From Minisyncoccota bacterium (lineage in GTDB: Bacteria; Patescibacteriota; Minisyncoccia; Phycocordibacterales; UBA6065), in assembly GCA_036400935.1 (NCBI GenBank), contig DASWWW010000003.1, positions 101,083 to 165,082 on the forward strand: DNA of 64,000 nt. The letters run 5' to 3'. The notes under the pieces were generated by a model, which was not told the DNA's origin, did no database searches, and saw nothing but the letters and a program-made list of their open reading frames with translations. The position numbers and the translations under genes were made by a program. Below, one piece after another: positions 39,059 to 55,105 of the stretch (positions within the stretch are counted from its first letter, which is position 1; the number at the start of each line of letters is the position of its first letter).

Positions 39059-39100
39059 TCAAAAAAGCCGCGACTCGCGGCTTTTTTGTGCCAAAGATTC

Positions 39101-39880
39101 TTATTTCTTCGCCACCTCCCACATGTTCTGCCACATGAGCTTCATGATGTGGCAGAATTCCTTGCTGTGAACCGTAAAGGCGATCTTCTCACTACCGCCT
39201 GACGCGAAAAGGCACTTGTCCCCGTAAATCCAGTAGCTCATCTTCCAGTCTGTGCCCTTGGGCATGTATCGGACGTTCGTGCGCGTCTTTTGGACGCTAT
39301 TCTCGAGCCATGAATGCTCCTTGGTCTGGAGCGCACGATCGCCGTGCTTCTCGATCGAATAGAACATCACGCCGTACTGGTGGCGCTGCTCGCCGTGCCA
39401 TCGCAGGAACTGCTCGCCGAGGCTGTCGAGCATATCCTGCATGGGCCACATGAGATAGGTTTCAGTGTGATGCTTGGTCCAGGGCATGTCGCGGAACGCC
39501 TGCTGTATGCCGAGGGTGCCCGAATAGAAGCGGATTTTGGGCTTGCCTGCAGGCTCCGCTTTGGCATGGCTATCCATGAACGAGAGCAGGGAAGAGTGGG
39601 CTGCCTTGAACTCCTCCATTCTCTGGGCATGGGCGCGCACGAGCTGCTCCTTGTCAGACATACCGTATTTTTTCCCGCGTTCACTATCCTCGCTGTATTC
39701 GTTTATCAAACTCTTGTCTACAAGGATCGCGACGGCGTCATATACGGATGATTTTGGTATGGCGAGGCGCGCGGATATATCGGCGACGCTCGACGAGCCG
39801 TTGCGGGCAATATCCGTCAGCACCTTGCGCGCGACGGGCTTGAGCCCGAGTGTTTCTAGGAAAGCTTCGTTTTTAACCAT
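39101..39880 (-). CDS. TrmB-family transcriptional regulator (module 2)
   Basis: N-terminal wHTH (LETLGLKPVARKVLTDIARNGSSSVADISARLAIPKSSVYDAVAILVDKSLI). Confidence 0.7.
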   Translation of the reverse strand: MVKNEAFLETLGLKPVARKVLTDIARNGSSSVADISARLAIPKSSVYDAVAILVDKSLINEYSEDSERGKKYGMSDKEQLVRAHAQRMEEFKAAHSSLLSFMDSHAKAEPAGKPKIRFYSGTLGIQQAFRDMPWTKHHTETYLMWPMQDMLDSLGEQFLRWHGEQRHQYGVMFYSIEKHGDRALQTKEHSWLENSVQKTRTNVRYMPKGTDWKMSYWIYGDKCLFASGGSEKIAFTVHSKEFCHIMKLMWQNMWEVAKK

Positions 39881-39961
39881 ATGTGTATTAATTATTCGCT
39901 TTTCGCCGAATTATATACAAATAATACCATTCATATAGTATAACGGCAAGCCAATATACAT

Positions 39962-41071
39962 ATGAAAAAATACATATACATTGTCATTGCGATCGTCGTG
40001 ATTATAGCGGTATGCGTTTCGGTAAATAGGGTAGATAAGGATACTGCCGTGGCAGAGCGGCCAATAAAGATCGGCGCGGTTATCTCGCTCTCGGGTCCAG
40101 CGGCTGCATTCGGCGAATACGCGAAAAGCGGCATGGAGCTTGCGGCAAAGGAAATAAATTCCAAAGGCGGAATGAAGGGCCGAACTGTCGAGATCGTATT
40201 CGGGGACGACAAGACCGATCCGAAGTCAGCCGTGTCGGCCTTCAATAAGCTGTCGAGCGTAGACGGCGTGGACGCGTACGTCGGCGGGCTCTGGGATTTT
40301 ATGGCTCAGCCGCTTTTGCCGCTCGCCCTTTCAAGCAAGACCGCTTTCATATCGCCGTCGCAGTTCAGAATTGAAGGCGCTTTCGACCTTAACGAGCAGT
40401 CGTTCGTGATGCTTACCGATTTTGATAAGGTCATCTCGAGCCTTAGGCCATTCTTGGAGAAAAGCGACGTGAAGAAAATCGCTGTTGTCCATTTTGCTTC
40501 GGGTTTTGGCAGGGAGATCGCCGAAACGATCGATTCGATAAGCCAGGATTTGGGCAAGGGAAAGATTATCGATGAGCAATACGCAGCGATCGGGACAAAT
40601 GACTTCAAGACCACGATCGCAAAGCTCAAGGCCGCCAATGTCGATACCGTCTTTCTCGATATGGTCGACATTGACCCGATAACGTTTCTCAAACGATCAA
40701 AGGAGATGGGATTCGCTCCAAAATTCATCACATACAATGGCGCGCTCGATTCGTTCAAGCAGACCGATATGCAGCTCGCCGAAGGGGTGTTCATTCTTGA
40801 TTGGGAATTCGCGGGCCCTCGCTTCGATAAGCTCTATCAGGACACGTACGGCAGGATCGCGTCCAAGTCCGTGAGCAAGGCATATGACGCCGTATATATC
40901 CTGGCTGAGGCAATAGCGAATACCAACAGCAGGGAAGATGTCGCCGCATATGTAGAGTCGCATTCGTTCGAAACCATGAATGGCACGATCCGGTTCTTGC
41001 CAACGCACGCGGTTGAGACGACGGATGTGTTGCTGAAGGTCGTTAGGGCGGGGAAGGCGATGGCTATTTAA
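39962..41071 (+). CDS. LivK-family ABC substrate-binding protein (SBP2)
   Basis: TM anchor plus IKIGAVISLSGPAAAFGEYAKSGMELAAKEINSKGG. Confidence 0.8.
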   Translation: MKKYIYIVIAIVVIIAVCVSVNRVDKDTAVAERPIKIGAVISLSGPAAAFGEYAKSGMELAAKEINSKGGMKGRTVEIVFGDDKTDPKSAVSAFNKLSSVDGVDAYVGGLWDFMAQPLLPLALSSKTAFISPSQFRIEGAFDLNEQSFVMLTDFDKVISSLRPFLEKSDVKKIAVVHFASGFGREIAETIDSISQDLGKGKIIDEQYAAIGTNDFKTTIAKLKAANVDTVFLDMVDIDPITFLKRSKEMGFAPKFITYNGALDSFKQTDMQLAEGVFILDWEFAGPRFDKLYQDTYGRIASKSVSKAYDAVYILAEAIANTNSREDVAAYVESHSFETMNGTIRFLPTHAVETTDVLLKVVRAGKAMAI

Positions 41072-41801
41072 GCATCTCCCTCAGTTTCTCCTCGATATTC
41101 GTTGCGACGGTCTGATCTTGAATCAATCGGAAGGTAGAATCCATCATTTTGGCAATCTGCGCGTCATGGATCTCGATGGCGAATTTCCTCTCCATATTTA
41201 CGAGGATGGTTCTTGGCCCGTGGAGGAATATTTGCGCCGCATGATCGAAATAGGACGGGTCGAATAGACTTACTTTGAATGGCCTGCCAGTATAGGAATC
41301 GACCCAGTCCTTGCCGAAGAATTCCGCATGATCACGATAGCATTCAATCGAGCTGATTACCTCTGTAACGATTTTATTTCTCTTGAGCGAGCGGTTGGCG
41401 TTCACTATCGGCTCCTCGCCGATAGCTTCGCGCCATGGCTTGCCGACCTTGTTGCCGAGGAGCGATTTGAGGCGGTGCTTCGGGTCGCGGGCGAATTTCT
41501 CGAAAAGTTCGATGATGTCTTTCGGGTCGGTGTATATGCGGATCGAGCGCATCGGCTTTTCATTTTCGGGCTGGACGAATGCGATATCTAGCTTATTCCA
41601 GTATGTTTTCTTGCCTTTCTTGCTCGCTGCTACAAGTCCGCGCTTCTTGAGACGATCAAGGGCGATGTATGCCGTGGGGCGGGGGATCGAGGTCTTTTCG
41701 GACAGACTGAGGGGGGTTTCGTCTGTGCCGAAGTGCTTGAGGATAGCTTTTTCGTTCTTGCTGAGGAGCAGCGCCCTCTCGAAATCTGCTGGTAAATTCA
41801 T
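41064..41801 (-). CDS. TrmB-family transcriptional regulator (module 3)
   Basis: wHTH (LSEKTSIPRPTAYIALDRLKKRGLVAASKKGKKTYW). Confidence 0.7.
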   Translation of the reverse strand: MNLPADFERALLLSKNEKAILKHFGTDETPLSLSEKTSIPRPTAYIALDRLKKRGLVAASKKGKKTYWNKLDIAFVQPENEKPMRSIRIYTDPKDIIELFEKFARDPKHRLKSLLGNKVGKPWREAIGEEPIVNANRSLKRNKIVTEVISSIECYRDHAEFFGKDWVDSYTGRPFKVSLFDPSYFDHAAQIFLHGPRTILVNMERKFAIEIHDAQIAKMMDSTFRLIQDQTVATNIEEKLREMLK

Positions 41802-41826
41802 GCCGTCATCATAGCTGGACGCTATA

Positions 41827-41849
41827 AAATGTCAATAATCCTGACATTT
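41827..41849. promoter_or_regulatory. Candidate TrmB operator palindrome AAATGTCA-ATAATCC-TGACATTT
   Basis: TGTCA-N7-TGACA in the divergent region between TrmB3 and SBP3. Confidence 0.45.
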
Positions 41850-41952
41850 TGTGATGGTTGAAACTTGGCTCAAATAAAAGACTTTTACCGGCAAATCCGA
41901 TGAGAAAAAGGGCGGCCCGTTACATATAAAGGGAATGCGCTAGTATGGCGTC

Positions 41953-43044
41953 ATGACAATAAAAGCAAAAATATTCTCGGCCGCCCTGGCTATCGTACTA
42001 ATCGTTGGCATCGCGACCTTTATCGGCAATCGCGAGGCCGATCAGAATTCCGCGGGCTTCAAGGTCGGTTTGATCTCGATTCTTTCTGGAGACTATGCTG
42101 CCGTCGGCGAAGCGTTCAAGAACGGCGCTGTGCTCGCCCAAGAGGAATACAATGCGGCGCATCCTGCCGCGCCCGTCGAGCTCTACATTGAGGACGACGG
42201 ATTCAGTGGCGGGCGCGGCGTGAGCGCGTATCAGAAGCTTGTCGGCTTGGACAAGGTGGACGCGCTAATAAACGTCTCGACTCCGACAATCGATTCGATA
42301 TATGAAACCGTCTCAAAGACTGACATGCCCGTGATCCAGGGCGGAGAACAGGGCCGGGAGCCTTCGGACGACAACGTCTTTGGCATATATCCATCGAGCA
42401 TCGAATCCGAATACGACTACGGCGTCTATATGCGCGAGCAAGGCATCCGCGAGATGGCCCTCGTCTATACGAACATTGATGCAATGGTGCGTTTCGTCGA
42501 TGCGTTCAAAGAAGGCTTTCAAGGCAAGACGACCGATTTCATAATCAAGGCCGATGAGAAGGACCTCCGTCCGCACGCGCTAAAGGTGGCGGCGTCCGGA
42601 TACGAGACTGTCGGCACATTTATCGTGCCGCAGCAGGGCGCGCAGTTCCTAAAAGAGTACTTGAAGGTTGCTCCAAAAAAGCCGAAGTTCTTCTTTGATA
42701 CAAATTTCCAATCAGGCTTTACCGATTACGAGCGCATTCTCGGAGATCTGACTATTCTCGACGGCAGCATCGTTGGAAGCATGAACATTCCGACTACTGA
42801 TCAGTTCAGGGCATCATACAAAGCTCGCTTTGGTTCGGACGCCGGCTTTCTTGCCGACATAGGCTATGATGCATTCAATGTACTCGCGCGGACGCATGAT
42901 GTTGATCCAAAAAAGTGGCAGGAGAATATCAAAAAGCTCAGCATGGTAGGAGCGAGCGGAGTCACCAAATTCAGCGAGAAGGGGAATCGCAAGCCGGATA
43001 CGAAGATGATGGTTATGAAAGGTGGAAAAATTTCCGAAATCTAG
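41953..43044 (+). CDS. LivK-family ABC substrate-binding protein (SBP3)
   Basis: TM anchor plus FKVGLISILSGDYAAVGEAFKNGAVLAQEEYNAAHP. Confidence 0.8.
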   Translation: MTIKAKIFSAALAIVLIVGIATFIGNREADQNSAGFKVGLISILSGDYAAVGEAFKNGAVLAQEEYNAAHPAAPVELYIEDDGFSGGRGVSAYQKLVGLDKVDALINVSTPTIDSIYETVSKTDMPVIQGGEQGREPSDDNVFGIYPSSIESEYDYGVYMREQGIREMALVYTNIDAMVRFVDAFKEGFQGKTTDFIIKADEKDLRPHALKVAASGYETVGTFIVPQQGAQFLKEYLKVAPKKPKFFFDTNFQSGFTDYERILGDLTILDGSIVGSMNIPTTDQFRASYKARFGSDAGFLADIGYDAFNVLARTHDVDPKKWQENIKKLSMVGASGVTKFSEKGNRKPDTKMMVMKGGKISEI

Positions 43045-43102
43045 GCCGCCAAAACCGTCCCCTCCAGGGCGGTTTTGCTTTGCGCCATTCGTGCTATTCT
43101 GA

Positions 43103-43987
43103 GTGTACAAATCTACCGCCATGGACATAGTCCCACAGCTCGTACTGAATTCCATCATCGCCGGCGCCATCTATATGATGATTGCGCTGGGCTTTAACCT
43201 GATTTACTCGACGGCCAAATTCTTCGACCTCGGCTACGGCGTTCTTACGGCTATCGGCGGCTACGCAACATTCTTCTTTTACAAGAAGCTTGGCCTCGAC
43301 CTCTCCATCGCTATCATCCTCGGCGTTGCTATCGCGGGCGCCATCGGCTATGCGGTGCAAAAGATCGTGTATAAGCCGCTTCGTGCGCGTAAGGCGTCCA
43401 ACATGGTCATGCTCGTGGCATCGCTCGGCGTATTTACCGCATTGCAGGCGCTCATCGCCATTTTCTTCTCGAGCCAGTTCCAGACGCTCTCCATGAATGC
43501 GGGCGGGGACAGGGTATTCGACATCGGCGGGGCGGTCATCACTCAGGTTCAGCTCATCATTCTCGTTTCAGGACTCGTCATCATGGGCATTCTCGGCTTC
43601 GTCTTGAAAAAGACTATGTTCGGCAAGGCGGTGAAGGCCGTTGCCGATGACGAGGAGGTCTCCAAGATCGTCGGTATCAATACGAACAAGGTCGTCTCCG
43701 GCGTATTCATCATCGGCTCGATGATAGCGGGACTCGCCGGCATATTCGTCGGCTTTGATACGGGAATCGAGCCGACGATGGGCATGTCTCTGTTGTTGAA
43801 GGGAGTGATCGCGTCCATCGTCGGCGGCATCGGCAACGTGTATGGAAGCGTGCTCGGCGCATTCCTCCTCGGCTTCGTCGAGAACTTCGGCATCTGGAAG
43901 ATTTCGGGCGAGTGGAAGGACGCGATCGCGTTTGGCCTGCTCATAATTTTCCTGCTGTGGAGACCGCAGGGGATTTTGAAAAGGTAG
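43103..43987 (+). CDS. Branched-chain amino acid ABC transporter permease (LivH-like)
   Basis: Polytopic BPD_transp_2-type permease (LNSIIAGAIYMMIALGFNLIYS...). The true start may be MDIVPQ at about 43121. Confidence 0.8.
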   Translation: MYKSTAMDIVPQLVLNSIIAGAIYMMIALGFNLIYSTAKFFDLGYGVLTAIGGYATFFFYKKLGLDLSIAIILGVAIAGAIGYAVQKIVYKPLRARKASNMVMLVASLGVFTALQALIAIFFSSQFQTLSMNAGGDRVFDIGGAVITQVQLIILVSGLVIMGILGFVLKKTMFGKAVKAVADDEEVSKIVGINTNKVVSGVFIIGSMIAGLAGIFVGFDTGIEPTMGMSLLLKGVIASIVGGIGNVYGSVLGAFLLGFVENFGIWKISGEWKDAIAFGLLIIFLLWRPQGILKR

Positions 43988-44012
43988 GCCCGCTTAATTT
44001 ACAAATAACATC

Positions 44013-45119
44013 ATGAGCAAAAACAAACTTTGGATAATTGTAGGGATTCTCGCGGTACTGATCATCGCCCTTGTTTGCCTAAGCGGGTCTCGCTCAGGTG
44101 ACGGGCTCAGCAAGCCGATCAAGATTGGCGTAATGGCCATACTTAGCGGCGATGCAGCTGCGTGGGGAAACAATGCAAAGAAGGCTATCGACATGGCTAT
44201 TGAGGAGCATAATGCCAAGTATCCGGAAAAGCAGGTGGAGACCGTCTATGTCGATACAAAGGGCGACTCGAAGGAGGCCGTTACCGGGTTTACGAAGCTC
44301 ACCAAGGTAGATAAGGTGCAGTTCATAATCGGCCCTCTTTTTTTGAATGAGCTGACTTCGATTGATCCTCTCGTGCAGGCTTCCGGCATTCCTGTAATCT
44401 CTCCAGCCTATACACCTAAGGAAAACAGGAAGAATCCAAAGAATCCGCTGCTCATGTGGATGGACGCCATGATCGAGACTGAGCGAATCGCTCGCTACGT
44501 GATTGGTCAGGGGGTAAAGACTGTCTCCATAATTCATTCCACTGATGCTTGGGAAACGTCGGTTGCTGGGGAGTTCAAGAAGCAGGTCGAGGCGGCAGGC
44601 GTAAAGGTCCTGGCTGTCGAGACCGTTCAGCAGGATGCTAACGACGTCAGGCTTTCGGTTACGAAGCTCATCGCAGGCAAGCCTGAGGCGGTCTTCCTCT
44701 CGACTTACTTCCAGTATATAAATTCGCTTAAGGCGCTCGGCGAGCAGAGATATTCGGGAAAGATGTTCAGCATCGAGATCGATGATTATCTTGCTGGAGA
44801 GACCAAGGATTTCGTGCGAGAGGTCTTGGCTATAAATCCTGAAAATTACAGCTCGGATTTCAGTGCCGCATTCGAGAAGAGATACGGCGTACGCCCGGGC
44901 ATGCCAGCCGGCCATGCGTTCGACGCGGCTAACTTGCTCTTGGAAAATATCGCAAAGGATTCGAGCAAAGAGAGCGTATTCAACGATTTCAAGACGAGAA
45001 GCTCGTACAAGGGCGTCTCCGGCGAGATCACTTTCACTCCTGATGGAAAGACGCTTTTCCCGACGGCTCTTTACCGAATAAGCGACGGCAAGATAGAGAG
45101 GGTAGGACCGTTGGAATAA
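44013..45119 (+). CDS. LivK-family ABC substrate-binding protein (SBP4)
   Basis: TM anchor plus IKIGVMAILSGDAAAWGNNAKKAIDMAIEEHNAKYP. Confidence 0.8.
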   Translation: MSKNKLWIIVGILAVLIIALVCLSGSRSGDGLSKPIKIGVMAILSGDAAAWGNNAKKAIDMAIEEHNAKYPEKQVETVYVDTKGDSKEAVTGFTKLTKVDKVQFIIGPLFLNELTSIDPLVQASGIPVISPAYTPKENRKNPKNPLLMWMDAMIETERIARYVIGQGVKTVSIIHSTDAWETSVAGEFKKQVEAAGVKVLAVETVQQDANDVRLSVTKLIAGKPEAVFLSTYFQYINSLKALGEQRYSGKMFSIEIDDYLAGETKDFVREVLAINPENYSSDFSAAFEKRYGVRPGMPAGHAFDAANLLLENIAKDSSKESVFNDFKTRSSYKGVSGEITFTPDGKTLFPTALYRISDGKIERVGPLE

Positions 45120-45123
45120 AAGC

Positions 45124-45990
45124 ATGGAATACCTCATTCACCTCGGAATACTCGTCGCCATATATGCCATACTCGGCATATCGCTCAATCTCGTGGTCGG
45201 ATACGCGGGACTGCTCTCGATCACGCAGGCGGCGTTCTACGGAATCGGCGCTTATTCGACGGCCATCCTAATGACGAATTACGGTGTGAATTTCTTCGTA
45301 TCGATACTCGTCGGCATGGTGGCAACGGCGATCGTGAGCCTTCTCGTGGGCTTCGTCCTGTCGCGATTCCGCGAGGACTACTATGCCCTTGGCTCGTTTG
45401 GCTTCAATATCATCATCTACAGCATATTTCTGAATTGGCAGTCTCTGACTCGCGGTCCGCTCGGCATTCCGGGCATCGATAGGCCTGAGGTATTCGGCTT
45501 CTCGTTCTCTGAGAATATCTGGTTCCTTGTCCTGGTCGTGGCTGCCGGCGCCCTCATCTATTATTTAACCGAATACATTTCAAAATCGGCATTCGGCCGC
45601 GTGCTCAAGGCGATCCGCGAGGACGAACAGGCGATTCAGATATTCGGTTACAAGACCATTTACTACAAGCTCGCTATATTCGTAATATCGGCGGTGATAG
45701 CGGGAATCGCCGGAGCGTTCTTCGCGAGCTACATCACGTTCATCGATCCATCGACGTTCACTCTCAACGAGTCGATCTTTGTCCTCTCGATCATCATCCT
45801 CGGAGGCCTCGCGAACATCCGCGGCTCGATCCTCGGCGCACTCTTCCTTATTCTCTTGCCGGAAATCCTGCGCTTCGTCGGCTTCCCGTCGGATATCGCA
45901 GCCCAGATGCGCCAGGTTGTGTACGGAGTGCTCTTGATCGTGCTGATGTTGTATAGGCCGCAGGGATTGTTGGGGGAGTACAAGCTCTAA
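45124..45990 (+). CDS. Branched-chain amino acid ABC transporter permease (LivM-like)
   Basis: Polytopic permease (GYAGLLSITQAAFYGIGAYSTAIL...). Confidence 0.8.
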   Translation: MEYLIHLGILVAIYAILGISLNLVVGYAGLLSITQAAFYGIGAYSTAILMTNYGVNFFVSILVGMVATAIVSLLVGFVLSRFREDYYALGSFGFNIIIYSIFLNWQSLTRGPLGIPGIDRPEVFGFSFSENIWFLVLVVAAGALIYYLTEYISKSAFGRVLKAIREDEQAIQIFGYKTIYYKLAIFVISAVIAGIAGAFFASYITFIDPSTFTLNESIFVLSIIILGGLANIRGSILGALFLILLPEILRFVGFPSDIAAQMRQVVYGVLLIVLMLYRPQGLLGEYKL

Positions 45991-46046
45991 TTGTAATAAG
46001 TCGGACTAGTGCTATCCTTTAATTAATTACTAATAGCCATACTTTA

Positions 46047-47186
46047 ATGAAAAAGACCGTCTGGACCGTCATTGCTGTTATTGTCATTATTCTCATAGCT
46101 GTCTTGGCCCAGAAGCCTTCCAAAGAGGCCGCCACAGGCCCTGTACGGCTCGGAGGCGCATTTATGATTACCGGCCCCGCTGCTCCCGTGGGCGAGCTTC
46201 AGCAGAAGGGCGCGAGCCTGGCTGTCGAGACGATCAACAATGCCGGAGGCATTAACGGTCGTCCTATCGAGATCGTAATCGAGGATGCGGGCTATGATCC
46301 AAAGACCGCCGTAAGCGCGTACCAGGCTCTCAAGATCAAGGGACTGAAGCTCTTCATCATGGATGGAAGCTCGGTCGTCTCTGCAACACACCAGCTCGTC
46401 GTCGATGACGGTAACTTTACGATCGCCGGCGGCGCTACGGCTCCTTCTTATTTCGATAACAGCATCCAGTCGTGCCGCATCGCCCTCACCGCAAAGGACT
46501 TCGCTCCCGGAATGGCTGAGATCCTCCGCAAGCACGACTACAAGAACGTCGCAGTCTTCCTTGCCGACAACGAATACGGCAGGGGACTCGCTTCTGAGTT
46601 CGTCAAAGCCTTCAATGGAAAGGACGAGTCGATCGTAGTGACTGAATTCTACAGCGGCTCTGCGGGTTCAAGCGATTTCAGGACGAATATTCTCAAGATA
46701 AAGGCGCAGCAGGACAAGATAGACGCCATCGTGTTCTCAAACATTCTCACGAACGCGGAGGGCATGCTGAGGCAGATGAAGGAGCTCGGCGTCAACAAGC
46801 CCATCGTGAGTGACAACCCTACATTCGAGAACCCTTCGATCAAGGATTTCTCCCTTCTCGAGGGAACCGAGGTGGTTGATTATGAATACACTCGAGCAAT
46901 CCAGCCTACCGATTCGGCAAAGGTTAAGGGCTTCAAGGAGGCGTATCGCGCGAAGTACGGCATCGATCCCCAGTACTTCGGAGCGGGAACATATGACTCG
47001 ATCATGCTTGTCGCGGAGGCTGTAGGAAAAGTCGGCGAAGATCCAAAGGCAGTCGCGAAATACATCAGCTCACTCAAGAATTACGAGGGTGTTACCGGAA
47101 CGTACACCTTCGACAACGATTGCGAGGTCGACCGAACCCTTATAACCCGCGGTATTAAGAATGGGGTCAAGGTGGATATTAAATAG
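46047..47186 (+). CDS. LivK-family ABC substrate-binding protein (SBP5)
   Basis: TM anchor plus VRLGGAFMITGPAAPVGELQQKGASLAVETINNAGGINGRPIEIV. Close paralog of SBP9. Confidence 0.8.
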   Translation: MKKTVWTVIAVIVIILIAVLAQKPSKEAATGPVRLGGAFMITGPAAPVGELQQKGASLAVETINNAGGINGRPIEIVIEDAGYDPKTAVSAYQALKIKGLKLFIMDGSSVVSATHQLVVDDGNFTIAGGATAPSYFDNSIQSCRIALTAKDFAPGMAEILRKHDYKNVAVFLADNEYGRGLASEFVKAFNGKDESIVVTEFYSGSAGSSDFRTNILKIKAQQDKIDAIVFSNILTNAEGMLRQMKELGVNKPIVSDNPTFENPSIKDFSLLEGTEVVDYEYTRAIQPTDSAKVKGFKEAYRAKYGIDPQYFGAGTYDSIMLVAEAVGKVGEDPKAVAKYISSLKNYEGVTGTYTFDNDCEVDRTLITRGIKNGVKVDIK

Positions 47187-47195
47187 CCTCAATCA

Positions 47196-47948
47196 GTGTC
47201 GATTCTCAGCACAAAAAACCTTATAAAGCATTTCGACGGCGTCCATGCCGTGGACAGCCTTTCGATTTCATTCGAGGCGGGCAAAGTGACGGCCCTAATC
47301 GGCCCTAACGGCTCGGGCAAGTCGACTCTCATCAACACCCTTACAGGCCTGCACGCTATGGACGGCGGCATCGTCCGCATAGGCGAGAAGACTGAGCTCA
47401 CCAAGATCGACCCGTCTGAAGTCGCCTCATACGGCCTTACCAGGACGTTCCAGGACGTGCGCCTGTTCGAGCAGATGACCGTTCTCGATAATATCCTCGT
47501 AGTCCTCACGGATCGAGGCATAGCGAGCGCTTTTGTAAGCAAGCACAATGCCTTTCACCTTGAGAAGGCCGAGGAAGTGCTCCGTAAAGTCGGCCTGTGG
47601 GACAAGCGCAACGAGCTCGCTTTGGGGCTCTCGTACGGCCAGCGAAAGCTTGCTGAGATCGCGCGCATTCTCGCTATGATCCATTCGCCGTCAGGCGAGG
47701 CGCAGGTATTTTTCTTTGACGAGCCGTTCGCAGGACTGTTCCCGGAGATGATCAAGGTCGTCGTGTCTGCCATAAAGGAACTGCGGGCAGCGGGCAAGAC
47801 GGTCATTCTCGTCGAGCACAATATGGATCTCATTCGCGAGCTATCGGATCACGTGTTCGTTTTGGACGCAGGCAAGATTCTGGCGCAGGGAACTGCCGCA
47901 CAGGTGCTTTCTAATAAGGAGGTTATCGAGGCGTATTTGGGGGAGTAG
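47196..47948 (+). CDS. ABC transporter ATP-binding protein (LivG-like)
   Basis: Walker A GPNGSGKSTLINTL, signature LSYGQRKLAEIARIL, Walker B FFFDEP. Confidence 0.85.
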   Translation: MSILSTKNLIKHFDGVHAVDSLSISFEAGKVTALIGPNGSGKSTLINTLTGLHAMDGGIVRIGEKTELTKIDPSEVASYGLTRTFQDVRLFEQMTVLDNILVVLTDRGIASAFVSKHNAFHLEKAEEVLRKVGLWDKRNELALGLSYGQRKLAEIARILAMIHSPSGEAQVFFFDEPFAGLFPEMIKVVVSAIKELRAAGKTVILVEHNMDLIRELSDHVFVLDAGKILAQGTAAQVLSNKEVIEAYLGE

Positions 47949-48689
47949 CTACGCTTCCTTCGAAACCTTCCACAATGAATTGAACAGCGTAAGCATCGAC
48001 TCGGCGAAGTCGGTGCTTTCGACGAGGAAGCCGAAATTATCTCGCGTGGAGATGACGGCGACTTTGTTTTTGTATATGAACATCGTGTTTGGTATCACCG
48101 TGCCTGCGGGCGCGAATCGCGTCTCGCGGAGTGCCTTCTTGTCGGTAGGGTCGTACGTCTTGTCGGCGACTTCCTTGTCCCGGAGGCGCACGCCGATTAC
48201 CTTTATGCCGAGCTTTACGCGCCTCTTTACGTAATTTTCCATGAATTCCTTGCCAGCGACCTCGACGAGGTGCTTTGCCGAGCCGATGCAGTAGTATTCC
48301 TTGATCCCGCCGGTAAGGCTGTCCTCGAAAATGCTCTGGACGCCTTTCTTGCCCGAATAGAAGCGGATGAGTGGCGCTCCTTCGCCGGGGCGGTGCAGGC
48401 CGAGCAGGGAAGGAATGATGTTTTTGGCCACGAGCACGTTCTGCTCGGCCTGCTTTAAGAGCAAGTTAGGCGACTCTGCCTTGTACATGAGCTTCTTTGA
48501 CTGATGGACGACGGATACCAAGCCCTTTTCGGCGAGGCTCTCGAGTATGACGTAGCAGGTAGGGCGCTTCAGGCCAGTTTTGGCGGCAATTTCGGACGCG
48601 GAGAATATGCCGAGCATGAGCGCGTGGGTGTAAATGGTCGATTCCTTCGTATCGAGCCCGAGAGATCGCAGGTGCGGCGAATAGTCCAT
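47949..48689 (-). CDS. TrmB-family transcriptional regulator (module 4)
   Basis: wHTH (ASEIAAKTGLKRPTCYVILESLAEKGLVSVVHQSKKLMY). Confidence 0.7.
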   Translation of the reverse strand: MDYSPHLRSLGLDTKESTIYTHALMLGIFSASEIAAKTGLKRPTCYVILESLAEKGLVSVVHQSKKLMYKAESPNLLLKQAEQNVLVAKNIIPSLLGLHRPGEGAPLIRFYSGKKGVQSIFEDSLTGGIKEYYCIGSAKHLVEVAGKEFMENYVKRRVKLGIKVIGVRLRDKEVADKTYDPTDKKALRETRFAPAGTVIPNTMFIYKNKVAVISTRDNFGFLVESTDFAESMLTLFNSLWKVSKEA

Positions 48690-48717
48690 ATTCAGAGGCT
48701 ATCAGAATCACCTATTG

Positions 48718-48736
48718 TTGTCAATTTTTTTGACAA
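48718..48736. promoter_or_regulatory. Candidate TrmB operator palindrome TTGTCAA-TTTTT-TTGACAA
   Basis: Perfect palindrome (TGTCA-N7-TGACA core) 29 nt upstream of the TrmB4 start. Confidence 0.45.
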
Positions 48737-48856
48737 AATAACCCAAATTCTAAATTATGGCTATAAATATAGATTAAATTTGTATATATAAACAATTACT
48801 TTTGACTATTGTCTCATATACTTTACACTATTCAATATTAATTGTGTTATAAATAT

Positions 48857-49918
48857 ATGAAAAACAAACTGATTTTCCTTGGAGTAGCGATCGCCATCGT
48901 CTGCGTCGGCGTCTTTGTCAACAGGGACTCTTCGCACGAAGTAATAAAGATCGGCGTTGTCGCACCTCTTACTGGACCAGGCTCTGCTTTCGGCAATTCG
49001 CTCGTGAAGGCGATCGAGCTCGCTCAGCGCGATCTTGGAGGCACCAAATATCGCTACGAAGTCGTGATCGAGGACGATGCGACTAATCCCGCGACGTCCG
49101 CGAGCGCGGCGCAGAAAATGATCCAGATAGACGGCGTAAAGGCCATCATCTCTGCTACGTCCGGCAGTGGTAACGCGATCGCGCCCATCGCCGAAGCTTC
49201 GAAAGTGCCGCTCATCTGTATCGCGTGCGCGGACAAAAGGATCGGCACTGGCAAGTACAGCTATACCTCTTCGGTTCAGGTCGAGGACGAAGCAAAGGTC
49301 TTCGTCGATCATGCGGTAAAGAATGGGGCAAAGACCGTCGGCGTCTTGAGCCAGAATCATCCGGGAATAAACGCCGTGGCTGATGCGGTCAAGGCCGAGG
49401 CGATCTCGCGCAATATTCCAGTCGTATACGAGGAAAGGTTCGACGGCAACAACCGCGATTTCAAGACGATCATAAAGAAAGCCGCGGCGGCAAACGCTGA
49501 CATCTATTTCTTGCAGGCATTCCCTCCGGCTCTCGATATCGTGGGCAAGGAATTGGCTGCTCTCGGCGTAAAGAACGTGGCGGGAGGCGCGGGCGCATTC
49601 ACTATCGCGGCTGAGCCGACTTTGTTCGAAGGCAAGTGGTATACCGAGGCTCTCGCCGACGCAGATTTCACCGAGCGATTCTCAAAGGAGTTCCCAGATG
49701 TCCGATTCAACATTCGCACCGGCCCGTATGGCTACGATGCGTTCAATATGCTCGTTCAGGGCTTGGACAAGGATGCTGACATGGCTGCATATCTCGCCGG
49801 CATCGATACATTTGACGGCAAGGTGGGGCAGTACAAGACCGACGGCAACTGGTTCCGCTCGACTCCGGGCGTCTGGATGGTAAAGGACGGAAAGTTCGTA
49901 GTTATTTCGCAGGATTAG
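48857..49918 (+). CDS. LivK-family ABC substrate-binding protein (SBP6)
   Basis: Start MKNKLIFLG (internal to the track ORF 48842). IKIGVVAPLTGPGSAFGNSLVKAIELAQRDLGG. Confidence 0.8.
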   Translation: MKNKLIFLGVAIAIVCVGVFVNRDSSHEVIKIGVVAPLTGPGSAFGNSLVKAIELAQRDLGGTKYRYEVVIEDDATNPATSASAAQKMIQIDGVKAIISATSGSGNAIAPIAEASKVPLICIACADKRIGTGKYSYTSSVQVEDEAKVFVDHAVKNGAKTVGVLSQNHPGINAVADAVKAEAISRNIPVVYEERFDGNNRDFKTIIKKAAAANADIYFLQAFPPALDIVGKELAALGVKNVAGGAGAFTIAAEPTLFEGKWYTEALADADFTERFSKEFPDVRFNIRTGPYGYDAFNMLVQGLDKDADMAAYLAGIDTFDGKVGQYKTDGNWFRSTPGVWMVKDGKFVVISQD

Positions 49919-50663
49919 GCGGAAGCAAATTCCACAGGCACGTGAATACGTGGTCCATCATCTCGGCGATGGCGGGCGAGTCGATGATCATCGAATAGAC
50001 ATCGTCGTCGCGGTGCGAAAAGAGGGCGACCTTCTTGCCATAGACGATAGTCGTGCCTTGGAATGCCTTGCCTGGCATGAATCGCGTTTCGCGGTGGCTG
50101 TCGGATGCATAGTTTTTGGGTGTACGTCCTTCGAATTCGCCGGGTACGATCATTTTCGTGAATATGCCGAGCTTCTTCTTGTACTCGAGCCTCTGCGGCA
50201 GGATTTTCGGCATATAGTCGGCGAGCTTCGGGTGAGATATGGTGTGGAGCTCGCGGATTCCTTTGAGGTGAGGGTTGTTGTATACGTCCTCGATGACGAT
50301 TTTCACGCCCTCGGCTCCCGTATAGGTCTGAACTGAAGACGTGTGCGAGGCGTCCTTTGACAGGCCCTGGAGAAGGGGAAGGACGGAGTCGAGGAGGCTT
50401 TGCTTTTCCTCGAGGTCGCGCGACAGGCGGCTCGGATCTGCCGACAGGTAGCGCAGGACGTTGTTTTTCTTGTAGGACGAGACGAGCTTTTTCGACTCGA
50501 GCTCCTGGAGGGCGAGGTATACCGTCGAGCGGGGAAGGGCGGTGCCTTTTGCGATAAGAAATGCCGTCAGGTCGGCGCCTTTCTTGTGCTTGAGCATGTG
50601 CAAGTAGACTTTTGCCTGCTTGTCGTCGAGGCCGAGCTCGATAAGGGGTTGAGATAGATTCAT
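49902..50663 (-). CDS. TrmB-family transcriptional regulator (module 5)
   Basis: wHTH (LTAFLIAKGTALPRSTVYLALQELESKKLVSSYKKNNVLRY). Start placed at MNLSQPL; the track start MTVIM would lie inside the palindrome. Confidence 0.7.
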   Translation of the reverse strand: MNLSQPLIELGLDDKQAKVYLHMLKHKKGADLTAFLIAKGTALPRSTVYLALQELESKKLVSSYKKNNVLRYLSADPSRLSRDLEEKQSLLDSVLPLLQGLSKDASHTSSVQTYTGAEGVKIVIEDVYNNPHLKGIRELHTISHPKLADYMPKILPQRLEYKKKLGIFTKMIVPGEFEGRTPKNYASDSHRETRFMPGKAFQGTTIVYGKKVALFSHRDDDVYSMIIDSPAIAEMMDHVFTCLWNLLPPNPAK

Positions 50664-50669
50664 GATTAC

Positions 50670-50686
50670 TGTCATAAATTATGACA
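50670..50686. promoter_or_regulatory. Candidate TrmB operator palindrome TGTCA-TAAATTA-TGACA
   Basis: Perfect TGTCA-N7-TGACA immediately upstream of the TrmB5 start. Confidence 0.45.
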
Positions 50687-50823
50687 CCAATACGCTATCA
50701 TGAAATCTTTATTAAATAAAGATTTTTGACGAATTCTACCAAATAGTGTCCAAAGTATGTGGCTATTATTGCGCCCTTCCATAGAATGGGCCCATAGCTC
50801 ATAACTGCTATACTTCACACATT

Positions 50824-51936
50824 ATGAACAAGAAAAGCATCGTCTGGTTGGTCGTGGTTATTATCGCAATCGCTGTTATCGCAAGCGCGGCCGTCAAGAA
50901 GCCGTCGGCCCAGATTGGCACCCTCAAAGTCGGCGTAATTGCCGTCGAGACTGGCGCCGCGGCATATATCGGCGTATCGACCGAAAAAGGCATCGAGATC
51001 GCCAAGGAGGAGCTCGCCGCAAAGCATCCAGACTTCAGGATCGAGACAATAAACGAGGACAGCATGTTCACGCCCAAGGGTGGCATCGACGCGTACAACA
51101 AATTGCGCGCGACCGACAACATTGACTCGATCATTACCATGGCAAGCAACGTGAGCGTGGCCGTAGAGCCTCTTGCGGCCAAGGATGGCATCCTTCATGT
51201 CGCCGCATCGACCCTCGCTAACGGATACACCACTCCTGAGGACCTTTCGTTTAGGCTTACGGCCAAGGGAGATCTCGAGGCCGGTCCGGCTCTCGCGTAT
51301 CTCAAGGGCAAGGGCGTCACGAAGCTCGGCATTCTCGCCATGCAGAACGAGATCGGCGTCTCATTGCGCGACTCTCTCAAGGCGCAGGCTGCGGATTACG
51401 GCATAACGATCGTCATCGAGGAGAATTATCCTGCTGATGCGACCGATTGGAGGACGTCCCTTATAAAAGTCCGCCAGGCAAAGCCGGAGGCACTCTATCT
51501 GGCAGCCCTCGCGGCGCATTCAGCGCAGATTCTCAAGCAGGCCGACAGCCTCGGTTTCGATCCGCTCTTTATCAGCTATCGCGCGACTGAGGATCCTGCT
51601 CTCATAAAGAATGCAGGTACCCTTGCCGAGAAGCTCGTCTATACGACCTCGTTCGACGCCGAGAACAGCCAGCTTGCCAAGGATTTCGCGGCGGCATACA
51701 AGGCAAAGTATGACGAGGAGGTAAACGGCTATGCGGCTGAGGCGTACGAGTCGATGAAACTTACCGCTGAATCGTTCATGAAATGCGGCAAGGATTATGT
51801 GTGTATTAAGGATTATTTTTTCTCTATAAAGAATCGGCCGTCAGTCCTCGGCCCAATCAGCTTTGACCGGAACGGCGACGTATCGTATCCGTTCATCGTG
51901 AAGACTGTGAGGGAGGGGAAGTTCGTGAAGATATAG
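50824..51936 (+). CDS. LivK-family ABC substrate-binding protein (SBP7)
   Basis: TM anchor plus LKVGVIAVETGAAAYIGVSTEKGIEIAKEELAAKHP. Confidence 0.8.
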   Translation: MNKKSIVWLVVVIIAIAVIASAAVKKPSAQIGTLKVGVIAVETGAAAYIGVSTEKGIEIAKEELAAKHPDFRIETINEDSMFTPKGGIDAYNKLRATDNIDSIITMASNVSVAVEPLAAKDGILHVAASTLANGYTTPEDLSFRLTAKGDLEAGPALAYLKGKGVTKLGILAMQNEIGVSLRDSLKAQAADYGITIVIEENYPADATDWRTSLIKVRQAKPEALYLAALAAHSAQILKQADSLGFDPLFISYRATEDPALIKNAGTLAEKLVYTTSFDAENSQLAKDFAAAYKAKYDEEVNGYAAEAYESMKLTAESFMKCGKDYVCIKDYFFSIKNRPSVLGPISFDRNGDVSYPFIVKTVREGKFVKI

Positions 51937-52698
51937 CTACTTTGAGATATTCCAAAGCCCCATAAAGAAGTCGGTATAGCTTTTCGCGATCCTCTCGCTT
52001 TTAACGGAGAAGACGGCTATCTGGGAGCCGTACATGTAAAAGCAGATTCTGTTGTCATAGATCGTGATGTTGAGGTTCCCGGTAAAGGCGATGGGCATAA
52101 GCCTATATTTAAATAGTGGGCGTCCGTTGTTTTCCCTCAAGAATTCTTTCTGCGACGAGCTGCCAATATACAGGAGTTCGATGCCTTTCTTTTGGCGTTG
52201 ATATTCGTACTCGTCAAAGTATTTTCCGTGATTCTTAACGTATTCGTCGCCGCTACCGCCAAGGACGTACATCTTTGAGCCGGGCCTTGCAGCGCGAAGT
52301 ATCTCAAACTCGTTCGCGACAAAGGCCTCCTGCCCACGATACGATTCGAGCTCTTGGATGTCTGGAATGAGGAAGCTCTTTTCGAGCTGTCTCACGACGC
52401 TATCGGCGATCCTCTTTTTGTGTTCGAAGAAGCCGCCGAGCTTTGATGGGGGATAGGGGAAGAATCTTTTCCTGCCTTTGACGATAGTGTGCCCGGTCAG
52501 GCCTTTTTTCTCGAGAGATACGAGCGTGTCATAGACGAATTGCCTGTGCAGGCCGCTATCCTTCGCGATGGCGGTCGAACCCGACTCGCCGAGCGACAGG
52601 AGGGAGGTGTAGACCTTTGCTTCTTTGCTGCTCAATCCAAGCTCCTTGAGAGAAGAAAAGATCTCGTCCTTTGCGCTGTTGTCAATAATTTGTGACAT
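51937..52698 (-). CDS. TrmB-family transcriptional regulator (module 6)
   Basis: wHTH (LSLGESGSTAIAKDSGLHRQFVYDTLVSLEKKGL). Confidence 0.7.
   Translation of the reverse strand: MSQIIDNSAKDEIFSSLKELGLSSKEAKVYTSLLSLGESGSTAIAKDSGLHRQFVYDTLVSLEKKGLTGHTIVKGRKRFFPYPPSKLGGFFEHKKRIADSVVRQLEKSFLIPDIQELESYRGQEAFVANEFEILRAARPGSKMYVLGGSGDEYVKNHGKYFDEYEYQRQKKGIELLYIGSSSQKEFLRENNGRPLFKYRLMPIAFTGNLNITIYDNRICFYMYGSQIAVFSVKSERIAKSYTDFFMGLWNISK
52680..52697. promoter_or_regulatory. Candidate operator TGTCA-ATAATTTG-TGACA overlapping the TrmB6 start codon
   Basis: TGTCA-N8-TGACA. Shares TGTCAATAAT with the module-3 site. Confidence 0.35.
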
Positions 52699-52744
52699 TG
52701 TTTCCGTTTGAGCCTTATTTGATGGCTATTTTTGTCTGTAATTA

Positions 52745-52765
52745 TGTCATCATAATTTACTGACA
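52745..52765. promoter_or_regulatory. Candidate operator TGTCA-TCATAATTTAC-TGACA upstream of SBP8
   Basis: TGTCA-N11-TGACA, 21 nt upstream of the SBP8 GTG start. Confidence 0.35.
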
Positions 52766-52785
52766 CTAAAAAAACAAGTGTTATA

Positions 52786-53856
52786 GTGCACAATATGAAA
52801 AGAATATTGTACATAGCAGGTAGTGTCGCGGTCATAGCGATTTTGATTATTTCAAACGGAGGCTCGAACGCCAATAAGGACAGGGAGATCGTCATTGGCG
52901 CGGCCCTGTCGCTTTCGGGCGCGGCTGTTCAGGATGGCGAGAGCATCAAGAGCGGCTTGGAGCTCGCGCGGGCAGACCTCAAGGCGGAGGGGATCGAAGT
53001 TAGGATAATTTATCAAGACGACAAGACTGAGCCGAAAAATGTCGTTGGCTCCATAAATGCTCTCGCGGCTCAGGGGGTGGAGGCGATTGTCGGGCCGACC
53101 TGGAGCTATTTGGCGGATGCCGGCGTTCCAGTTGCCGACAGCCTGAAAATTGTCACCGTTATGCCCGCAAATACTTCCGAATACGTGAACGCTCGGAGCG
53201 ATTACGCGTTTTATACGACGACAAAGATCGAGAAAATGCTTCCTGTGCTTTCAGAGTGGATATCCGAGAGGGACAAGAAGAAAGTGGCTGTGATCAGTGG
53301 ACAAGGATCGTGGTATCAGGTTGTGCGCAGCGGCGTTCAGAGGGCGGTCAAGGACGCCGGCGCCGAGATCGTGCTTTCCGAAGAGATCCCTTATGGTGCG
53401 GACTCGTCGGCAATCGCCTCGGCGCTCTCGAAGGTGAAGGCTGCCAAGGCAGATGTTCTCTTTTTCGAGGTGGATGACGAGCAGGCGATATTCTCGATGC
53501 TCAAGAAAGTCAGGGAGCAGAAGATTCCCGTAGACATACTGTCGGTCACTACCGCTGTCGAAAGGGTCAAGGGTGATTTGAAGATAGATAATGGCGTATA
53601 CGCGCTTGCGCCCGAAACTTCCGAGGAGTTCAAGGCGAAATATGAGGCAGCCTACGGCAAGCTGGCTCCTGCTTATGCCGACAGCGCGTACGATTCTCTC
53701 ATGCTTCTCGTGGACGCGATAAGGAATAGGGATGAAATGACCCTTGCCTCATATCTCAGGTTCGAGACCGACTACAAGGGCTTTGCCAAAGAGTACGATT
53801 TTGACGCTCGCGGCGACATCATCGGCGGCGCCTGGGTCGTAAGGGATCTGCGCTAA
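52786..53856 (+). CDS. LivK-family ABC substrate-binding protein (SBP8)
   Basis: GTG start, or MKRIL at about 52795. REIVIGAALSLSGAAVQDGESIKSGLELARADLKAEG. Confidence 0.75.
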   Translation: MHNMKRILYIAGSVAVIAILIISNGGSNANKDREIVIGAALSLSGAAVQDGESIKSGLELARADLKAEGIEVRIIYQDDKTEPKNVVGSINALAAQGVEAIVGPTWSYLADAGVPVADSLKIVTVMPANTSEYVNARSDYAFYTTTKIEKMLPVLSEWISERDKKKVAVISGQGSWYQVVRSGVQRAVKDAGAEIVLSEEIPYGADSSAIASALSKVKAAKADVLFFEVDDEQAIFSMLKKVREQKIPVDILSVTTAVERVKGDLKIDNGVYALAPETSEEFKAKYEAAYGKLAPAYADSAYDSLMLLVDAIRNRDEMTLASYLRFETDYKGFAKEYDFDARGDIIGGAWVVRDLR

Positions 53857-53953
53857 TTAGCTAAGCGATCAAAGACGCGAGGTGGACAACCATCTCGCGT
53901 TTTTGCATCCATCTGCTATCGTTAAGCCAGCCATTATTAGCTATACATTCCGT

Positions 53954-55102
53954 ATGACCAAAGCGACGAAAGTTATAGGAGCGATTATCATTATCATTCT
54001 CGTGATTTGGGGCATTTCTGCCGCCCAGAAAAAGAACGTAACGTCTCAGGGCCCGGTCAAGATCGGGGGCGCCTATATTCTCTCCGGCCCAGTCGCTCTC
54101 GTTGGCGAGCTTCAGAGGAACGCTACCGCGATGGCCGTAAAGGAAATCAATGACGCTGGCGGAATTAATGGCCGACCGTTCGAGGTTGTCATGGAGGACG
54201 CTCAGTATGAGGCAAAGACAGCCGTAAATGCATATCAGGCTCTCAGGCAGAAGGGTATCAAGTTCATTATCGCCGACGGATCGCCTGTCGCAGCTCCTAT
54301 CCGACCGATGGCCGTCGCTGACGGCAATTTCATGATGGTTCCTGGTGCTACAGCCCCGTCGTATTTTGATGGCGATAATCGCACGTGCCGCATCGCCCTT
54401 ACCGCGAAGAATTTCGGGCCGGCTATCGCTGACGCTCTCGTGGCGAAAGGCTATAAGAAGGTCGCGACTTTCTATCCTGAGAACGAGTCAGGACGCGGAT
54501 TTTATGATGAATTTACCAAGGCTTTTGCCGCAAAGGGCGGGGAGGTTGTCGTTTCGGAATTCTATAGCGCTTCTGGCTCGGGCGACTATCGAACCAATCT
54601 CGCCAAAATAAAGGCGAAGCTCAAGGAAGTCGACGCCATTGTCATGCAACAGGTGCTCAATACTATCGAGCCCATGTTCAAGCAGATGTCAGATCTCGGT
54701 ATCGACAAACCGATCGTTACTGACTACTACACAATCAACAATCCTGCTTTCAAGAATCTCTCGCTCGCAAACGGCATCGAATTCATCGACTACGAGTACG
54801 CCAAGACCGACAAAGCGACTGACAGCAAGCGGGTAAAGGATTTCAAGGCGAATTACCGCGCCCTCTATGACTCCGATCCGACATTCTTCGCCGCTTCTAC
54901 ATACGATTCGATCTACATTATCGCCGATGCAATCAAGGAGGTCGGTGACGACCCTGCCAAAGTTGGCGCATACGTAAGCAAGCTCAAGAATTATCCTGCG
55001 ATTACTGGAACCGTCTCGTTCAATGACGACTGCGAAGTCGACCGAACGATATCATTGAGCAAGGTCGTTGATGGAAGGATCGTTATTAGCGAGAATAAAT
55101 AG
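53954..55102 (+). CDS. LivK-family ABC substrate-binding protein (SBP9)
   Basis: Start MTKATKVIGAIIIIILVIWG (track ORF begins at 53882). VKIGGAYILSGPVALVGELQRNATAMAVKEINDAGGINGRPFEVV. Collinear with SBP5 (identical CRIALTAK, DDCEVDRT, LKNY segments). Confidence 0.8.
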   Translation: MTKATKVIGAIIIIILVIWGISAAQKKNVTSQGPVKIGGAYILSGPVALVGELQRNATAMAVKEINDAGGINGRPFEVVMEDAQYEAKTAVNAYQALRQKGIKFIIADGSPVAAPIRPMAVADGNFMMVPGATAPSYFDGDNRTCRIALTAKNFGPAIADALVAKGYKKVATFYPENESGRGFYDEFTKAFAAKGGEVVVSEFYSASGSGDYRTNLAKIKAKLKEVDAIVMQQVLNTIEPMFKQMSDLGIDKPIVTDYYTINNPAFKNLSLANGIEFIDYEYAKTDKATDSKRVKDFKANYRALYDSDPTFFAASTYDSIYIIADAIKEVGDDPAKVGAYVSKLKNYPAITGTVSFNDDCEVDRTISLSKVVDGRIVISENK

Positions 55103-55105
55103 TCT

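Follow-up and report, generated by a model that had tools for sequence, protein, structure and literature searches.

The 64-kb stretch of DNA analysed here, referred to as the window, comes from a Candidatus Paceibacterota genome of the Candidate Phyla Radiation (CPR; Patescibacteria) and carries six minus-strand genes for TrmB-like regulators, each divergent from a plus-strand gene for a LivK-type substrate-binding protein (SBP). These six regulator-SBP pairs are numbered modules 1 to 6 in Table 1, and the element in question is the inverted repeat TGTCA-N7-TGACA, hereafter the dyad, which is found between the two genes in several of the modules and is a predicted operator. Both gene calls of the preliminary description were borne out by profile searches, the N-terminal winged-helix domain PF01978 being found in 6/6 regulators (26.3-51.5 bits against a gathering cut-off of 25.6 bits) and Peripla_BP_6 in 6/6 of their partners. 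The regulators are about 250 amino acids long, and the pairwise identity among the six is 20-31%.

The five TGTCA...TGACA dyads reported in the preliminary description were all recovered by exact match at the positions given there, and all five lie within regulator-SBP divergent regions. For the exact TGTCA-N7-TGACA form the window has three sites where dinucleotide shuffles predict 0.01, and 0/100 shuffles reached three. No TGTCA...TGACA pair beyond these five was found in the 64 kb with spacers of N3-15, the window totals being 35 TGTCA and 28 TGACA. The module 5 dyad precedes the likely regulator ATG (50663..50661) by 7 nt, and an alternative ATG (50675..50673) overlaps with it. Modules 1 and 2 had been described as lacking the dyad, which holds for its exact form; each has a weak variant (Table 1), neither of which is significant alone. 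At the place corresponding to the module 1 variant a 39% orthologue (L019_12048) has CTGTCG-N8-TGACAG, and the sole module-2-like homologue carries TTGTCGA-N3-TCGACAA.

Table 1. Positions of genes, dyads, palindromes and promoter elements in the window
Feature	Coordinates	Strand	Details
Six TrmB-like regulator genes, span	37027..52698	-	
Regulator gene, module 1	37027-37812	-	
Regulator gene, module 2	39101-39880	-	
Regulator gene, module 3	41064-41801	-	
Regulator gene, module 4	47949-48689	-	
Regulator gene, module 5	49902-50663/50675	-	
Regulator gene, module 6	51937-52698	-	
LivK-type ABC uptake cluster	37949..56962	+	
Module 1 degenerate dyad	37842..37859		TGTCA-N8-GAACA, 2 mismatches; weak
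Module 1 putative regulator promoter		-	GTGACA (minus-strand reading of TGTCAC half), 18 nt, TATATC, 5 nt, ATG
Module 2 candidate variant dyad	39894..39911		ATTCG-N8-CGAAT; between putative promoter and regulator ATG
Module 2 putative promoter	39949..39921	-	TTGCCG, 17 nt, TATTAT
Module 3 operator O1 (candidate)	41830..41846		TGTCAATAATCCTGACA; exact N7; extended palindrome AAAATGTCA...TGACATTTT
Module 3 regulator promoter	41799..41835	-	-35 TTGACA (41835..41830), 16 nt, -10 TATGAT (41813..41808), 6 nt, ATG (41801..41799)
Module 3 SBP promoter	41919..41955	+	GTTACA (41919-41924), 16 nt, TAGTAT (41941-41946), 6 nt, ATG (41953)
Module 4 operator O1 (candidate)	48719..48735		TGTCAATTTTTTTGACA; exact N7; arms TTGTCAA/TTGACAA
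Module 4 regulator promoter	48687..48724	-	-35 TTGACA (48724..48719), 17 nt, -10 TAGCCT (48701..48696), 6 nt, ATG (48689..48687)
Module 4 SBP promoter P_div	48802..48829	+	TTGACT, 16 nt, TACACT; 66 nt from O1
Module 5 operator (candidate)	50670..50686		TGTCATAAATTATGACA; exact N7; perfect palindrome TGTCATAA-A-TTATGACA
Module 6 N8 dyad	52680..52697		TGTCA-N8-TGACA, TGTCAATAATTTGTGACA; over regulator start codon (52698..52696), codons 1-6
Module 6 N11 dyad	52745..52765		TGTCA-N11-TGACA, TGTCATCATAATTTACTGACA; exact match
Module 6 SBP promoter	52760..52797	+	CTGACA (52760-52765), 16 nt, TATAGT (52782-52787), 7 nt, ATG (52795-52797)
A/T-rich palindrome	37883-37899		CCCTTTATTTATAAGGG
A/T-rich palindrome	48760-48771		
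A/T-rich palindrome	50703-50725		AAATCTTTATT-A-AATAAAGATTT

Distribution and conservation of the dyad

The module-3 regulator matches a protein of a Candidatus Paceibacterota MAG (metagenome-assembled genome) at 100% identity. Word searches gave few homologues of the regulators, and two of their contigs bear similar regulator-SBP arrays. Species-representative genomes scanned with an alignment of the module-4 orthogroup yielded 33 loci, retrieved via the regulator peptide pattern KRPTCY, all of which are from MAGs of Patescibacteria/CPR; in many of them TrmB-like regulators and LivK-type SBPs are arranged in arrays. The comparison set comprises 566 kb in 35 loci (numbered with the prefix L) including the window, with 10-kb flanks around the regulators, and 79 regulator genes with upstream DNA were gathered from the loci and the window.

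All exact N7 dyads in the 566 kb (37/37) fall just upstream of TrmB-like regulator genes, in a zone that runs from 250 nt before the start to 30 nt within the gene (-30..+250) and makes up only 3.9% of the sequence. With the two pentamers treated as independent, 0.35 exact N7 dyads are expected in the whole set, and the observed frequency is far above chance. The spacer profile is sharp, with 37 dyads in the zone versus 0 elsewhere for N7, 4 versus 0 for N8 and 3 versus 1 for N11, and other spacers and the everted orientation gave noise level only in the 566 kb.

Orthologous arrays also carry the dyad. Among 27 orthologues of the module-4 regulator for which upstream DNA was available (35-94% identity) it is exact in 24 and has one mismatch in the other three, mostly at positions -45..-50 from the ATG; the spacer sequences vary, the spacer length is fixed, and the orthogroup consensus is (T/G)TTGTCA-N6-TTGACA(A/T). 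An 84% orthologue of the module-3 regulator (locus L036) retains the dyad and the -10 in intergenic DNA that has otherwise diverged. Module-5-like regulators elsewhere have the related dyads AGTCATAAATGATGACT, TGTCATAAATAACGACA and TGTCG-N7-TGACA at -10..-28 from the ATG. Neither of the two outcomes that the preliminary description would have counted against it, a chance frequency of the dyad or its absence from orthologous arrays, was therefore observed. The dyad is a real, conserved cis-element, and it goes with the regulator gene no matter what is encoded on the divergent side, be it an SBP or one of several unrelated small proteins.

Module-4-type regulators are also found outside SBP arrays (L008, L010, L014-L017, L022, L024, L025, L030-L034), with the same dyad and bidirectional promoter cassette. 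The divergent partners of these regulators, which include unrelated small proteins, a methyltransferase and a zinc-finger protein, have no common Pfam domain and no mutual similarity, and a common target gene for this group was accordingly rejected. In a closely related MAG with a 94% orthologue (L001/L003, 15630-16430 and 7977-8648) the array is rearranged and has in addition genes for a Bro-N domain protein and for a methyltransferase, both missing at the corresponding place in the window.

Promoter elements and the roles of the two half-sites

In modules 3 and 4 the dyad is designated O1; its regulator-proximal half is at the same time the -35 hexamer of the regulator promoter, and the module 3 promoter is the best sigma-70-like match in 37-56 kb (11/12 positions). 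The proximal half reads TTGACA in 31/33 dyad-bearing regulators and is followed after 16-18 nt by a -10 of the form nAnnnT in 29/33, compared to 36% of background windows. A -10 is located 5-9 nt before the ATG in 42/79 regulators, with a peak at 6 nt, versus 26% in shifted controls. Shine-Dalgarno motifs, scored as GGAG, GAGG or AGGA at -20..-4 of long open reading frames, are near-absent (1/31 window genes and 8/79 regulators), and since the -10 usually ends 6 nt before the ATG the regulator mRNAs are probably leaderless. Several other genes of the window (e.g. 14369, 18625, 25339-26625 (-), 29142 and 46047) have TAnnnT 6-8 nt ahead of the ATG, a sign that leaderless mRNAs may be widespread in this genome.

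As TGACA constitutes five-sixths of the sigma-70 -35 consensus, and dyad halves form part of each of the three top promoter-like matches in 37-56 kb, the dyad might be promoter architecture only, with back-to-back -35 hexamers (TTGACA on each strand) and no dedicated binding protein. The distal half fails, however, as a -35 element: its sixth base is unconstrained (C14, A7, T6, G6), and a -10-like hexamer follows it in 11/33 cases, which equals the background of 36%. The divergent gene has a near-consensus promoter of its own (TTGACA, 16-17 nt, TATACT-like) 64-67 nt from the dyad in 28/30 module-4-type loci including the window, and for these two reasons the distal half is not regarded as a promoter element. 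Nor would promoter function alone account for a spacing of exactly N7, for module-5-type dyads that lie downstream of the -10, for variants such as GGTCG-N7-CGACC that do not resemble a -35, or for the 0 dyads outside regulator zones in 566 kb, even at TTGACA-type promoters. Back-to-back -35 elements were consequently rejected for the N7 sites by the -10 test and the separate divergent promoter, and as a general explanation they are very unlikely. For the module 6 N11 dyad they are partly possible, as both its halves are readable as -35. The SBP promoter has the right half, CTGACA, as its -35; this promoter is very good and leaderless, scoring 10/12 positions with a TG preceding the -10, and the left half (ATGACA on the minus strand) is a possible weak -35 for the module 6 regulator. 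For the N7 sites, the conservation of a distal half without a promoter role at exactly this spacing is the key evidence and points to a DNA-binding protein, plausibly a dimeric one.

A palindrome may also act as a hairpin in RNA or DNA, as an attenuator, processing site or terminator. The sites, if transcribed, could fold at -3.8 to -9.0 kcal/mol, and their arms change in concert between paralogues. The dyads of modules 3 and 4 are nevertheless not expected to be transcribed, since they contain the regulator -35 and precede both divergent start sites. Within the module-4 orthogroup the arms are invariant instead of covarying and the spacer length does not change, and no T-run follows the site. 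A hairpin function is hardly credible on these grounds.

On the other side of the divergent regions, the SBP promoter of module 3, which lies 72 nt from O1, is conserved in L036 and is implied to be leaderless as well. That the dyads of modules 3 and 4 are upstream of a separate SBP promoter is compatible with a TrmB-like protein that binds there as an activator or dual regulator, activating the SBP gene and perhaps repressing its own. TrmBL1 is known to repress from positions downstream of the promoter elements and to activate from upstream, up to 156 bp (PMC4706686). The proximal half-site is however the regulator -35 itself, the classical position for occlusion, the dyad, with its centre about 105-115 bp ahead of the SBP start, is far from the usual class I and class II activator positions of bacteria, and the -35 and -10 elements of the SBP promoters are near consensus as they stand, such that an activator is not obviously needed. 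Activation is for these reasons considered rather unlikely.

Three further features were observed around these promoters. In many module-4-type loci (L007, L009, L011, L013, L018, L020, L030-L034) a second, weaker dyad (TGTCA-N7/8-nnACA or TGTyw-N7/8-TGACA) overlaps the -35 of the divergent promoter, with its centre about 70-73 bp from O1, near seven helical turns. Its spacing from O1 is fixed in 28/30 loci, the copy in the window (48810-48827) being weak and poor, and its presence hints at binding that is cooperative or looped. Roughly halfway from the regulator promoter to the divergent promoter, many modules and genomes have an A/T-rich palindrome of the CCTTATAAATAAGG type (Table 1; also L008, L010, L016, L032 and L034). 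This palindrome may be a site for bending or for a second factor; the CCTTATAAATAAGG-like sequence resisted definition as a strict motif, its enrichment being modest. Lastly, distant module-4-type regulators in L031-L033 have a leader of about 100-150 nt between the dyad and promoter and the ATG, with G+C-rich inverted repeats such as ctctcgccccttcggggcaccctcccc.

Regulators, recognition helices and the predicted operator

The regulators belong to a large, uncharacterised branch of the TrmB family that has expanded in CPR. A full search with a hidden Markov model gave 8,714 cluster representatives at E <= 1e-10, 1,341 of them at E <= 1e-30. Some members (P0030, P0044, P0048, P0051, P0100, P0101 and others) are 510-1079 amino acids long with 3-7 matched stretches, which suggests either that several TrmB-like units are fused in tandem or that gene calls were merged. 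The family profile aligns to residues 6-152 of Pyrococcus furiosus TrmB and places Tyr46, which is invariant in the alignments of the six paralogues, of 15 sequences and of the module-4 orthogroup, on TrmB Tyr50, a residue reported to be important for DNA binding (PMC4158304).

An AlphaFold2 model of the module-4 regulator (predicted local distance difference test score 82, predicted template modelling score 0.69) has a helix at residues 75-97 followed by an alpha/beta domain. Its top matches in Foldseek are TrmBL2 (5bpd, E = 3e-12) and TrmB (3qph, E = 3e-10) over about 240-270 columns, that is full length. The effector (sugar) domain PF11495 was undetected by Pfam in 6/6 regulators, and the model matches only the N-terminal, phospholipase D (PLD)-like part of the TrmB effector domain (2f5t, NucT, Zucchini). 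For these two reasons the regulators are, as modelled, TrmBL2-like in architecture. Assignment to the TrmBL1 equivalog was rejected with scores of 21-41 bits on NCBIfam NF047390, where the cut-off is 650.

The half-sites vary with the recognition helix of the adjacent regulator. Helices KRPTCY, PRPTAY and PRSTVY go with TGTCA/TGACA, KRTTxY with TGTCG/CGACA or TGTCT/AGACA, AKTTIY with GGTCG/CGACC, PKTSVY with GTCCA/TGGAC and PRSSxY with AGTCA/TGACT. LHRxxVY goes with the N11 spacing, and all three exact N11 dyads in the regulator zones of the 566 kb adjoin regulators with this helix. The variant palindromes of paralogues with other recognition helices share a GTC-N9-GAC core, and among 40 regulators outside the search pattern 14 show a palindrome built around GTC-N9/10-GAC whose arms are 5 bp or longer, the control rate for this palindrome being 0.2-0.3% in shuffled sequence or other AT-rich windows.

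This pairing bears on the identity of the binding protein. A different, shared (global) transcription factor would explain in a simple manner why three window paralogues that are only 20-31% identical share a core half-site. Against such a factor, half-site variants follow the helix of the neighbouring regulator, and the dyad occurs in the 566 kb nowhere but beside TrmB-like genes (37/37), irrespective of the divergent gene; a global factor is very improbable.

The reading favoured here, and held to be likely, is that TGTCA-N7-TGACA is the predicted operator of a CPR-specific subfamily of TrmB-family regulators, which would be dimeric repressors that act by occlusion of the -35 and thereby regulate their own genes. 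From the sequence pattern, the specificity for regulator upstream regions, the conservation, the promoter overlap and the predicted fold, all computed here, we infer the adjacent regulator as the binder, repression as the effect and the existence of an effector. In the preliminary description the dyad had been proposed as a shared operator of paralogous autoregulated regulators with diverging specificity, and the comparative genomics argues strongly for this, with the reservation that the proximal half also is a -35. Its position fits autoregulation better than direct control of the SBP gene, except for the N11 dyad of module 6, which overlaps the SBP -35.

Several observations weigh against the operator reading or narrow it. 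Its support is entirely computational, and the set of loci is subject to ascertainment bias through the peptide pattern, leaving the 10-kb flanks and the non-KRPTCY paralogues as the only independent controls. The proximal half would stay conserved as a -35 hexamer anyway, so that part of its conservation is promoter conservation. The covariation of helix and half-site was computed without correction for phylogeny and is supportive rather than conclusive. Several paralogues per genome share one core, three of them in the window, which leaves their specificity unexplained and makes cross-regulation among paralogues possible. The dyads of modules 3-5 precede the inferred SBP start site by about 105-115 bp, and the N7 dyads of these modules alone therefore leave SBP regulation unaccounted for. 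For module 5 no convincing -35/-10 pair of a regulator promoter was found, by eye or in a promoter scan of 37-56 kb. In module 6 the N11 dyad measures 16 bp from centre to centre, so that the two half-sites face opposite sides of the helix, a poor fit to a single rigid dimer, and the closest homologues lack the N11 spacing (two have N18 and one none). The N8 dyad of the same module is partly retained in two 39% orthologues as ATGTCA-N8-TGATA, and conservation at the protein level (M-S-x-x-I/L-D) could explain this equally well.

In the predicted fold of the subfamily a winged helix-turn-helix is followed by a long helix for dimerisation and by a C-terminal domain that is PLD-like. If the operator reading holds, the dimer would set two recognition helices (R-x-T-x-Y) in successive major grooves, 12 bp apart. 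On the dyads of modules 3 and 4 it would exclude RNA polymerase, since the proximal half-site is the -35 of the regulator's own promoter, and the outcome would be negative autoregulation. The site in module 5 would span the region between promoter and ATG, and in module 6 the N11 version would act over the -35 of the SBP promoter. Each regulator is envisaged to release the DNA once its C-terminal domain binds a small molecule that is related to the neighbouring SBP's substrate.

The gene cluster around the modules has ten LivK-type SBP genes in 37949-56962, namely the six that are divergent from regulators and those at 44013, 46047, 53882 and 55106, and interleaved among them are genes of the ATP-binding cassette (ABC) translocator, two for permeases (43103 and 45124) and two for ATPases (47196 and 56246). 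The ratio of ten SBP genes to two permease and two ATPase genes suggests that many binding proteins share one ABC translocator. A more far-reaching interpretation, which is tentative and on the whole doubtful, is that these are CPR-wide modular cassettes, each consisting of a TrmBL2-like regulator and a rigid bidirectional promoter under looped repression by a dimer of dimers, and each gating one interchangeable SBP of the shared ABC importer in response to one host-derived metabolite. The parts of such a cassette would be O1 on the regulator -35, the weaker dyad on the divergent -35 about 70-73 bp (about 7 turns) away and the A/T-rich palindrome at the midpoint, and recognition helix and half-site would evolve together into numerous orthogonal pairs.

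Hardly any Patescibacteria (CPR) have been cultured, and a large regulator family comes here with a sharply defined, conserved and easily testable site. Within the searchable literature, none was found that links TrmB-type regulators to Patescibacteria/CPR or TGTCA/TGACA to TrmB. If the predicted binding is true, this would be the first regulator/operator pair for this lineage together with a promoter model (TTGACA, 16-17 nt, TAnnnT, leaderless), regulons and the nutrient-sensing logic of episymbiotic bacteria would become predictable from sequence alone, and the pairs of helices and half-sites would be a natural series for the study or engineering of winged-helix specificity.

Comparison with known TrmB-family and divergent repressor systems

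The known sites of TrmB-family proteins are palindromes at promoters, being TACT-N3-AGTA for TrmB at the TM operon, TATCAC-N5-GTGATA for the Thermococcales glycolytic motif (TGM) of TrmBL1 and Tgr, and TACT-N7-8-GAGTA in Halobacterium (PMC4158304, PMC4706686). The gene setting is similar to that of TrmB in P. furiosus and Thermococcus litoralis, a repressor encoded beside a binding-protein-dependent ABC transporter with a palindrome overlapping the promoter, from which it is released by the substrate (PMC4158304). The DNA-binding domain of TrmB aligns with that of the regulators here, Tyr50 included, whereas the dyad differs from TACT-N3-AGTA in both half-site sequence and spacing. Archaeal TrmB has in contrast the full sugar-binding effector domain PF11495 that Pfam did not detect in the regulators here, and its transporter is of the sugar type as opposed to the LivK/branched-chain amino-acid type.

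The closest likeness in the site itself is to the TGM, which is bound by TrmBL1 of P. furiosus and Tgr of Thermococcus kodakarensis and has the same 17-bp palindrome in the same register. The TGM is bound by a TrmB-family dimer, and it is found at promoters or adjacent to them, with the outcome set by its position (PMC4158304, PMC4706686). Written as TGTCAn-N5-nTGACA, the dyad has T.TCA/TGA.A in common with the TGM, or 4/6 half-site positions, with differences in positions 2 and 6. The hosts of the TGM have promoters with a B recognition element and a TATA box and those of the dyad are bacteria with sigma-70-type promoters, and the regulators here, at about 250 amino acids, lack the sugar-binding subdomain. 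The TGM defines a regulon, whereas the sites here are local, on the regulator's own promoter, and no global regulon was seen in the 64 kb of this genome and the 10-kb flanks elsewhere. The preliminary description was right that the dyad differs from TACT-N3-AGTA, but its term of a new operator class is overstated, because the 17-bp layout is that of the TGM; the dyad is a new sequence variant of TrmB-family sites.

TrmBL2 (PDB 5BPD/5BOX) is the best full-length structural match, with about 260 amino acids and the same order of winged helix-turn-helix, long helix and PLD-like C-terminal domain without the sugar-binding subdomain. It is listed as binding coding as well as intergenic regions (PMC4158304) and is described as a chromatin protein in its PDB entries. 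Its sequence identity to the regulators here is only 15-17%, and the latter are associated with a sharply defined palindrome.

In classical divergent autoregulated one-component repressors, such as those of MarR- and TetR-type loci, a palindromic operator overlaps the -35. The loci described here have in common with these the divergent arrangement of regulator and target, the palindrome over the promoter and the presumed ligand-induced release. They differ in the protein family, in the leaderless promoters, in the rigid second promoter at 64-67 nt and in the multiplication of the cassettes as paralogous modules beside a shared ABC translocator. As a regulatory principle, autoregulation through a palindromic operator that covers the -35 is conventional; what is new is the lineage, the rigid bidirectional cassette and the series of recognition helices and half-sites.

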